Shown here: positions 13,570 through 14,139 of the stretch, piece by piece
Numbering within the stretch: the first letter of the stretch is position 1
Layout of the letters: each line of letters opens with the position of its first letter
DNA from: Escherichia coli
Lineage (GTDB): Bacteria > Pseudomonadota > Gammaproteobacteria > Enterobacterales > Enterobacteriaceae
Length of the DNA stretch: 36,673 nucleotides
Assembly: GCF_003334315.1 (NCBI RefSeq)
Contig: NZ_QOWR01000049.1
Direction: 5' to 3' (one strand)
Program-made: the position numbers and the translations under genes
The notes under the pieces: model-generated
What the model was told of the DNA's origin: nothing
Database searches by the model: none
The model's input: only the letters and a program-made list of their open reading frames with translations

Positions 13570-13621
13570 CGGATCGCTGGTTATCTGTAAGTAATAATTA
13601 TTACCGTAATGCAAAATACCC

Positions 13622-13662
13622 CTGGCACAAGTTACATCCTTCATCAGTAAAACTTGTGCCAG
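13622..13662 (+). terminator. Perfect 12-bp inverted repeat downstream of dcuR (candidate dcuSR terminator or protein-binding palindrome)
   Basis: ctggcacaagtt (13622-13633) and aacttgtgccag (13651-13662) separated by 17 nt, followed by an A/T-rich stretch. Confidence 0.4.
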
Positions 13663-14139
13663 ATCAAATATAATTATCCCTCCATCATCGCTAAAAATTA
13701 ATATCTCTTCAGGTGAACGGTGTTTTTAATTTCAAAACGCTAACAAAAGTTAATTAACTATTATGTCACCCGCATTATGTGTATTTTTACCCACAAATGG
13801 GTAGATCAGATTAATCTATAAACCTAATGACATCTGCCCTGAGAACAAAAAATAGACCGATAAATATCAATAAGATAACAGCAAACAAAACATTAACATC
13901 TGCGCAGTACAAACTATAAACCCATCGCCAGAGAGTCTTTCTCTCTGAAAAAGCCGCTTATCACAGTGCATAAATTTGCCGCTGCTTTAATCAGCCAATA
14001 TTCACTGTGAGGTATTTGCTAAAGCCGGTAACGACCAAACGGATATTTAGTCAGGCTCTGAAAACAGTTCATACAAAACAGAACGTGACTGTGATCTATT
14101 CAGCAAAAATTTAAATAGGATTATCGCGAGGGTTCACAC

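Follow-up and report, generated by a model that had tools for sequence, protein, structure and literature searches.

An FNR operator far upstream of dcuB and its lineage-specific hairpin partner near the 3′ end of dcuSR in Escherichia coli

Background

The FNR regulon is characterised by the dyad TTGAT-N4-ATCAA, and activating FNR sites usually lie at -41.5 (class II) or -61.5, the former being the position found at 19 of the 23 activated promoters counted by Myers et al. 2013 (PMC3688515). Table 1 of that study places dcuB-fumB in Category 1, the directly FNR-activated operons, with a peak centre at 4,347,259 and a top FNR site at -132.5 from the start, the most distal position among the compared entries of that table for activated promoters with a known transcription start site (TSS). 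The predicted site, TTGATCTGGCACAA, is given in Table S6 with a PatSer score of 12.3 and an ln p of -10.87, just above the threshold of -10.75, and the dcuB peak (~4,347,216) in Table S5 was called by MOSAiCS, NCIS, CisGenome and ChIP-chip and was also present in an earlier ChIP-chip study. The existence of an FNR site upstream of dcuB is already published.

Two kinds of 3′ end are relevant to the gene pair that precedes dcuB. Canonical terminators, of which the DNA analysed here contains examples at 342-367 and 6426-6451, have a perfect, GC-containing stem near the stop codon, a 2-nt loop and a TTTT tail. Transcripts terminated by Rho can have processed 3′ ends defined by stem-loops (Dar and Sorek 2018, cited by Adams et al. 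2021, PMC7815308). These are stable structures that lack a U-tract and lie in the untranslated 3′ part of the RNA, with C-rich, G-poor RNA adjoining and read-through that is sensitive to bicyclomycin, a Rho inhibitor. A third described element, the Fur box (TGATAAT-N-ATTATCA; 19-mer GATAATGATAATCATTATC), is an AT-rich dyad that bears on the conserved sequence described below.

Here we analyse the long intergenic region between dcuR and dcuB. Our reading, which we hold to be probable if not secure, is that the distal dcuB-fumB promoter has its far-upstream control region here, overlapping the 3′ untranslated end of dcuSR, and that this region combines an old FNR operator, an arm added to that operator in Escherichia, an RNA hairpin acting as a barrier at Rho-terminated dcuSR ends, and a protein site in a second conserved block, Block A. 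The finding is otherwise largely known, the hairpin-on-operator arrangement and Block A being small new details. It matters little beyond the locus, where it puts in order the map of a control region already well studied; its modest use lies in drawing attention to FNR activation from an unusually remote position and to a conserved block held at a fixed distance from the operator.

Methods

The window is the whole stretch of E. coli DNA that was analysed, 36,673 nucleotides in length. It runs as the reverse complement of the K-12 coordinates, and positions were converted as 13569 + (4,349,315 - NC_000913.3 coordinate). An offset of +1,977 between U00096.2 and U00096.3 was checked in three ways: with it the motif of Myers falls exactly on window positions 13654-13667, the dcuB/dcuR intergenic annotations of PMC5094792 (e.g. 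-354/+217) agree, and the ArcA site of Park 2013 falls at 13867-13899. Chance expectations were estimated from dinucleotide shuffles, with the class of inverted repeats defined by perfect arms of at least 12 bp and a loop of at most 20.

For comparison across lineages, one scan with DcuR returned 80 loci. Five genera, Escherichia, Citrobacter, Salmonella, Trabulsiella and Intestinirhabdus, have dcuB after dcuR; from the first four, 28 dcuR-dcuB intergenic regions were aligned, and Intestinirhabdus was left out. Four of the more divergent E. coli strains were added from a sample spaced evenly along the identity ranking.

Results and discussion

The dcuR-dcuB intergenic region

The window carries the E. 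coli gene order dcuS-dcuR-dcuB-fumB. The ORF list places dcuS at 11222-12853 and fumB at 15558-17204; dcuR (12850-13569, plus strand, its stop codon ending at 13569) and dcuB (14140-15480, plus strand) are placed by the ORF list and by the annotation of E. coli genomes. The dcuR-dcuB intergenic region has 36 % G+C. Nearly all of 5,426 complete E. coli genomes match the stretch at 99-100 % identity, each with a single copy, which is not the behaviour of a repeated (REP-like) element. A permissive Rfam scan of 13400-14300 gave no credible match (best E = 1.7, far below the gathering scores), a sigma-70 promoter scan returned no promoter on either strand, and the sole terminator-like site in a terminator consensus scan lay within dcuR, with none at either palindrome. 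A small ORF of 13 codons (ATG at 13609 to TAA at 13650) is intact in all Escherichia and has 3-48 codons or is absent elsewhere; it was rejected as a coding sequence, having no Shine-Dalgarno sequence and showing non-synonymous variation.

The sequence elements reported in the preliminary description are all present as it described them. The 14-bp AT palindrome GTAATAATTATTAC (13591-13604) is its own reverse complement. The inverted repeat, read on the plus strand, has arms CTGGCACAAGTT (13622-13633) and AACTTGTGCCAG (13651-13662), complementary at 12 of 12 positions with 17 nt between them, and the motif said to overlap it is TTGTG-CCAG-ATCAA at 13654-13667. The inverted repeat is not a product of chance, because only 0.065 repeats of its class are expected per 36.7-kb window, and when just the intergenic region is shuffled they turn up 0.1 % of the time (P = 0.001). 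As a palindrome the AT element is unremarkable, because 2.8 perfect 14-bp palindromes are expected per window, against 4 observed, and 5 % of intergenic shuffles contain one (P = 0.05); no further copy of it was found in the window. The FNR-like motif is likewise unremarkable by sequence alone, dyads within two mismatches of TTGAT-N4-ATCAA numbering 39 in the window against 23 expected, and draws its significance from conservation and from published ChIP data.

The FNR operator

The motif TTGTGCCAGATCAA at 13654-13667, a dyad without strand, is listed through its counterpart in Tables S5 and S6 and Table 1 of Myers 2013: it is the reverse complement of TTGATCTGGCACAA on the K-12 plus strand (U00096.2 4,347,240-253), and so has the same sequence and the same coordinates as the published site. 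Of the 10 positions of the FNR consensus it matches 8, including all of TTG and ATCAA, and the two published peak centres, 4,347,216 and 4,347,259, convert to 13691 and 13648 and bracket it. Published FNR ChIP data had been named as a check on this interval, and FNR occupancy is indeed present there. These data show that the element is an FNR DNA operator occupied in vivo under anaerobiosis. Direct activation of dcuB-fumB by FNR is published, and the 13654-13667 site may contribute to it.

With its centre at 13660.5, -132.5 from the distal dcuB start, the operator departs from the positional rule for FNR activation (near -41.5, or -61.5 and beyond), and it differs from the class II sites both in this distance and in its imperfect left half-site, TTGTG. 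It is also conserved. The motif and the right arm of the inverted repeat are retained in Escherichia, Citrobacter, Salmonella and Trabulsiella, and the core TTG.G..AGATCAA, which we call Block B, is invariant in 28 of the 28 intergenic regions from four genera. The proposal that the palindromes act as regulatory sites for dcuB has thus held for the second element, whose motif is the Myers site under the ChIP-seq peak of an FNR-activated operon.

Block A and the AT palindrome

The AT palindrome proved to be the E. coli form of a second conserved element. Block A (13579-13616, without strand) is an AT-rich sequence of ~40 bp in the 28-region alignment, with the pattern GTTAT-N6-GTAAyAATTATTAc-aATAATGaAAAAT; a perfect palindrome within it is confined to E. 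coli and close relatives, most other species having 13 of the 14 positions. The start-to-start distance from Block A to Block B is 74 bp (72-75) in nearly all species, even as the DNA between them is not conserved and the total intergenic length ranges over 552-754 bp. From centre to centre, Block A and the FNR site are 63 bp or 6 helical turns apart. Both blocks occur only where dcuB follows dcuR, and are absent where a convergent gene abuts dcuR.

Block A is probably a protein site, weakly Fur-box-like, and is a candidate for binding by a dimeric protein that would work together with FNR. Among known motifs the Fur box comes closest, sharing an AATTAT core with Block A, and we treat it as a lead only. 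Of the 14 positions of the Fur 7-1-7 box, E. coli matches 10-11, C. amalonaticus 13 and Trabulsiella odontotermitis all 14, the last also matching 17 positions of the 19-mer. The E. coli scores of 13/19 and 11/14 (P ~0.01-0.03 against shuffles) are near noise, and the register of the match shifts between species; the other Escherichia score 8-10 of 14, which is not significant. Work by Tseng in 1997 is said to describe effects of Fur and ArcA on fumB. None of dcuB, dcuR and fumB is named in the main text of Beauchene 2015, and dcuB-fumB of Salmonella has been reported to be Fur-independent.

Several other proteins were considered at Block A and rejected. The match to the ArcA motif of direct TGTTA repeats 11 bp apart (8-9 of 12) is no better than in shuffles, and ArcA does not bind the AT palindrome because its published site, ATGTTAATGTTTTGTTTGCTGTTATCTTATTGA (13867-13899, without strand; U00096.2 4,347,008-040, Park 2013 supplement), lies elsewhere, 270 bp away. 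An alignment of Block A with the sequence at 13720-13768 for DcuR was no better than shuffles (P = 0.26-0.96) and reflects base composition only. For H-NS, IHF and Fis, Table S6 of Myers (PMC3688515) shows that the FNR site, which is 63 bp from the palindrome, coincides with enrichment of none of the three, and the H-NS and IHF peak tables hold no coordinate in 4,346,9xx-4,347,4xx. A NarL heptamer, TACCCCT (13617-13623), is polymorphic within E. coli.

An RNA role for Block A may also exist. In several Citrobacter clades the block lies within a long hairpin (-14 to -24 kcal/mol, z of -2 to -5.5) whose outer GC stems are clade-specific, namely GGGATT/AATCCC, AGGCCTGG/CCAGGTCT and AGCGTT/AACGCT, and in the C. 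freundii complex this hairpin is followed by T-runs and resembles a true intrinsic terminator. In Escherichia and Trabulsiella the Block A hairpin is not significant (z ~0). RNAalifold on the 28 sequences returned only a trivial 5-bp helix. Pair counts gave no significant covariation for the hairpin around Block A, for the AT palindrome or for the 12-bp hairpin, in part because the register of the outer stems differs from clade to clade.

These hairpins open the way to the alternative that best survives, that the palindrome arose by chance inside what is left, in degenerate form, of an ancestral terminator hairpin of dcuSR and binds no protein. Its frequency by chance (2.8 per window; P = 0.05 for the intergenic region), its perfection only in E. 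coli and close relatives, and the position of Block A as the inner part of the Citrobacter hairpin between clade-specific outer stems would all fit such an origin. However, GTAAyAATTATTA is near-invariant in four genera, even in Escherichia and Trabulsiella with their non-significant hairpin, although the apices of terminators normally vary; covariation is not significant; and an RNA role leaves the fixed 74-bp distance to the FNR site unexplained. We regard this alternative as unlikely, although it retains appreciable weight.

Returning to Block A as a protein site, a bolder form of the reading would make it the operator of a regulator new to dcuB, Fur or another dimer, which would form one far-upstream complex enabling FNR to act at -132.5, with each lineage having separately built its hairpin by evolving a complement to a fixed operator, which would be Block A for Citrobacter and the FNR site for Escherichia. 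We offer this tentatively, as possible rather than likely. The 3′ hairpin of dcuSR itself seems to be evolutionarily labile, built beside whichever fixed operator was at hand.

The 3′ end of dcuSR

The two palindromes lie 22-93 nt past the dcuR stop codon. As RNA, the 12-bp inverted repeat folds at -17.1 kcal/mol, with a 12-bp stem that includes 6 G-C pairs and a loop of 17 nt, or 11 after extra inner pairs, and the 136-nt region folds better than its shuffles (z = -3). The AT palindrome folds at only -0.2 kcal/mol and Block A at -1.4 kcal/mol. On the dcuSR strand the AT palindrome is followed by CGTAATGCAA and the 12-bp hairpin by ATCAAATATAAT, neither with a T-run. The 12-bp hairpin is not a classical intrinsic terminator, because it has no U-tract; like the canonical terminators at 342-367 and 6426-6451 it has a perfect GC-containing stem near a stop codon, and unlike them it has a 17-nt loop and the tail ATCAAATA.

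The sequence just past the stem offers a different route to termination. A C-rich, G-poor tract on the plus strand (13660-13695), with a C:G ratio of 6:1 to 8:1 in 25-nt windows, is rut-like; it begins ~90 nt after the stop codon and is short, at ~35 nt. The sequence 3′ of the stem varies among Escherichia and yet remains C-rich in every one. Supplementary file 2 of Adams et al. 2021 (PMC7815308) reports a Rho termination region on the K-12 minus strand with its best coordinate at NC_000913.3 4,349,209 (Rho score 3.32, p = 4.2e-10), equivalent to plus-strand position 13675 of the window, which is 13 nt 3′ of the stem. Reads upstream/downstream were 90/44 in untreated cells and 309/502 with bicyclomycin. 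The position is coarse, as the method uses 800-nt windows, and according to the same study such coordinates are probably nearer to processed ends than to sites of termination. In the Term-seq data of that study, obtained under three aerobic conditions, there is no 3′ end at 4,349,1xx-3xx; expression of dcuSR may be too low under those conditions. The Rho coordinate might just as well stem from Rho activity within the long dcuB leader, or from an effect of bicyclomycin on dcuB transcription.

It thus appears that Rho, and not a classical terminator, ends the dcuSR transcript, and the hairpin is likely to be the 3′ barrier for Rho-terminated dcuSR transcripts. In the mechanism we propose, Rho would load immediately beyond the stem, where the RNA is C-rich and untranslated, and release the dcuSR transcript, and 3′ exonucleases would trim it back to the hairpin, so that the mRNA end is fixed and protected and read-through into dcuB is limited. 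The resemblance to the stem-loops of Dar and Sorek 2018, cited by Adams 2021, is in stability without a U-tract, location in an untranslated 3′ region, adjoining C-rich, G-poor RNA and bicyclomycin-sensitive read-through; the dcuSR hairpin differs from them in belonging to a single genus, in the low resolution of its Rho signal and in a 3′ end that is putative.

An account of the two palindromes as nothing more than intrinsic, Rho-independent terminators for dcuSR is improbable. Their place 22-93 nt after the stop codon, the -17 kcal/mol hairpin, the fold of the region (z = -3) and the terminator-like Block A hairpin with T-runs in the C. freundii complex speak for it; against it stand the tails CGTAATGCAA and ATCAAATATAAT, which contain no T-run, the failure of either element to match in the terminator scan, the -0.2 kcal/mol of the AT hairpin and the 17-nt loop of the other. 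Bicyclomycin moreover raises read-through, and the right arm is kept where the left arm is missing. The earlier suggestion that the palindromes simply terminate dcuSR does not survive the lack of a T-run on that strand and the near-absent fold of the AT palindrome, and the published data point to Rho. It had also been held that dcuSR ends at 13663-13675 with no protein bound would mark plain terminators; the Rho-region coordinate of 13675 fits that interval, whereas the absence of protein is contradicted by FNR occupancy.

The inverted repeat across lineages

We compared the parts of the 12-bp repeat separately. The right arm (13651-13662) shares 9 of its 12 bases with the FNR site. In the 28-region alignment the left arm (13622-13633) occurs in Escherichia and otherwise only in C. 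koseri, as an imperfect copy (9 of 10). In the remaining regions, pairing between the right arm and the bases aligned to the left arm is at background level, with ~52 % of cells paired against 38-54 % for slid controls. Because the left arm has no paired counterpart outside Escherichia and C. koseri, the old constrained feature is the DNA operator and not the hairpin, and on the evidence of the aligned regions the left arm is shown to be a later, lineage-specific addition to that operator.

Within Escherichia, comparison of the lineages shows the left arm to be under constraint. None of its 12 positions varies among seven Escherichia lineages, against 7 of 17 in the fast-evolving loop (13634-13650) and 27.7 % over the whole intergenic region. 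In the four more-divergent E. coli strains, the polymorphic positions flank the arms or lie in the loop (13638-13639), and both arms are unchanged. The sole change in an arm among Escherichia, in E. albertii, leaves a G-U pair on the dcuSR strand and a C-A mismatch in the minus-strand RNA. With the left arm present, the left half of the operator becomes the 3′ arm of the -17 kcal/mol dcuSR RNA hairpin. The FNR site thus doubles in Escherichia as an RNA hairpin arm, on which the published tables are silent.

The left arm could also be constrained for a reason at the level of DNA. A reading in which the inverted repeat works as DNA, either through a second CACAA half-site or as a cruciform that modulates access of FNR, with the RNA hairpin incidental, would account for the constraint on the left arm and for the CACAA that it contains, which mirrors TTGTG. 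A 17-bp spacer disfavours cruciform extrusion. The sequence at the 4-bp spacing beside CACAA is TACCC, so that the partner half-site is absent and a second FNR site in the left arm was rejected; Myers gives one FNR site per peak. We consider a role of this kind quite doubtful.

The distal dcuB promoter

Downstream of the operator, the conserved block TGTTTTTAATTTCAAAACGCTAACAAAAGTTAATTAAC... (13722-13768, without strand) is invariant in Escherichia and conserved across genera. We take it to be the DcuR-binding region of the distal dcuB promoter, the one treated in Abo-Amer 2004 and Janausch 2004. The promoter itself, on the plus strand, has its -10 hexamer TATTTT at 13782-13787 and its start at A13793, a start that we derived from the -132.5 of Myers. 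The sequence TGTGTATTTTTA, which contains TATTTT, is invariant across genera, and an anaerobic sigma-70 peak at ~4,347,120 converts to ~13787. From start to start, Block B and the DcuR-type block are 91-95 bp apart and that block and the distal -10 are separated by 28 bp. Judged from the alignment, Blocks A and B belong to an upstream module of ~230 bp of the distal dcuB promoter, because these spacings are held and because both blocks are absent where dcuB does not follow dcuR.

FNR might drive, instead of the start at 13793, an unmapped nearer promoter at ~13700-13711 that would give dcuB a third, longer leader. The distance of -132.5 from the usual -41.5 or -61.5 invites this idea, as does a conserved TTAATAT/TTATTAT 38 bp downstream of the FNR centre, which is 5 bp closer outside Escherichia and would put FNR at ~-43. 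No such promoter was scored, however, its hexamers are poor, its geometry varies through the 5-bp indel and the sigma-70 peak lies at ~13787, and we find it very unlikely. That the hairpin acts on the opposite strand, ending a divergent or antisense transcript from the dcuB control region before it reaches dcuR, is hardly credible. In its favour, the stem is followed there by GGGTATTTTGCA, a weak U-rich tail, the minus-strand fold has z = -3.0, and hexamers resembling GATAAT and TATAAT are present a little upstream. Against it, the promoter scan gave no hit on either strand, the Adams data have no 3′ end there, the U-run begins 4 nt past the stem and the E. albertii change is C-A on the minus strand and G-U on the plus.

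Regulation of dcuB is under selection in the gut (PMC5094792), and a full parts list of the region is of some practical value in that setting. The gut-adaptive A-to-T change at 4,347,121 described there converts to window position 13786, within the distal -10 element, where it turns TATTTT into TATTAT, an improved hexamer.

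Gut-adaptation mutations fall within the distal dcuB promoter

Mutations acquired during gut adaptation have been reported upstream of dcuB, comprising an A-to-T change at 4,347,121 and IS2 insertions at 4,347,105 and 4,347,126 (PMC5094792). Conversion of these coordinates places the substitution at window position 13786 and the IS2 insertions at 13802 and 13781 respectively, so that all of the gut-adaptation mutations of that study are held by the distal dcuB promoter (13781-13802) and none by the palindromes. The substitution converts the -10 hexamer of this promoter from TATTTT to TATTAT.

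Conserved and variable elements of the dcuR-dcuB intergenic region

Upstream of the distal promoter, a perfect TATAAT hexamer (13669-13674) lies directly 3′ of the published FNR operator and shows no variation in Escherichia, being present also in some Citrobacter. No recognisable -35 element accompanies this hexamer and the promoter scan made no call there. Between the FNR operator and the conserved DcuR-type block is a TTAATAT/TTATTAT element (13698-13704) displaying conservation across genera; its position is shifted by a 5-bp indel between Escherichia and the other genera. The DcuR-type block itself contains a perfect 10-bp palindrome, GTTAATTAAC (13748-13757), which is perfect in Escherichia only and reads GTTAATTAAG in other genera.

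A perfect NarL-type heptamer, TACCCCT (13617-13623), adjoins the left arm of the 12-bp inverted repeat (hairpin) downstream of dcuR and overlaps the first bases of that arm. The heptamer is probably not functional, since its sequence differs between E. coli strains, with TATCCCT, TATTCCT and TCCCCCT occurring as variants. Among 28 aligned intergenic regions from four genera, the sole locus outside Escherichia to carry the left arm of the hairpin is that of Citrobacter koseri NCTC10786 (L072). The DcuR match at this locus covers residues 13-240 with 81 % identity and the DcuB match residues 111-447; both are truncated or frame-broken in the assembly, which suggests that these dcuR and dcuB copies are either pseudogenes or assembly errors.

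Insertion and repeat elements elsewhere

In the pig isolate E. coli HNSQ2209 an IS1 element (373-1139 of its DcuR-containing locus, L082) is inserted exactly at the dcuR stop codon, flanked by a 9-bp target duplication, CAATAACGG, whose target site corresponds to window 13564-13572. The element stands between dcuR and the conserved AT-rich block (13579-13616), the FNR site and dcuB.

Other inverted repeats within the window include a perfect repeat with 15-bp arms and no T-tail (9696-9729), a repeat with 42-nt arms that are 76 % complementary (21027-21130), and a 20-bp palindrome, CCTGGCAGCATGCTGCCAGG (17221-17240), beginning 17 nt past the fumB stop codon.
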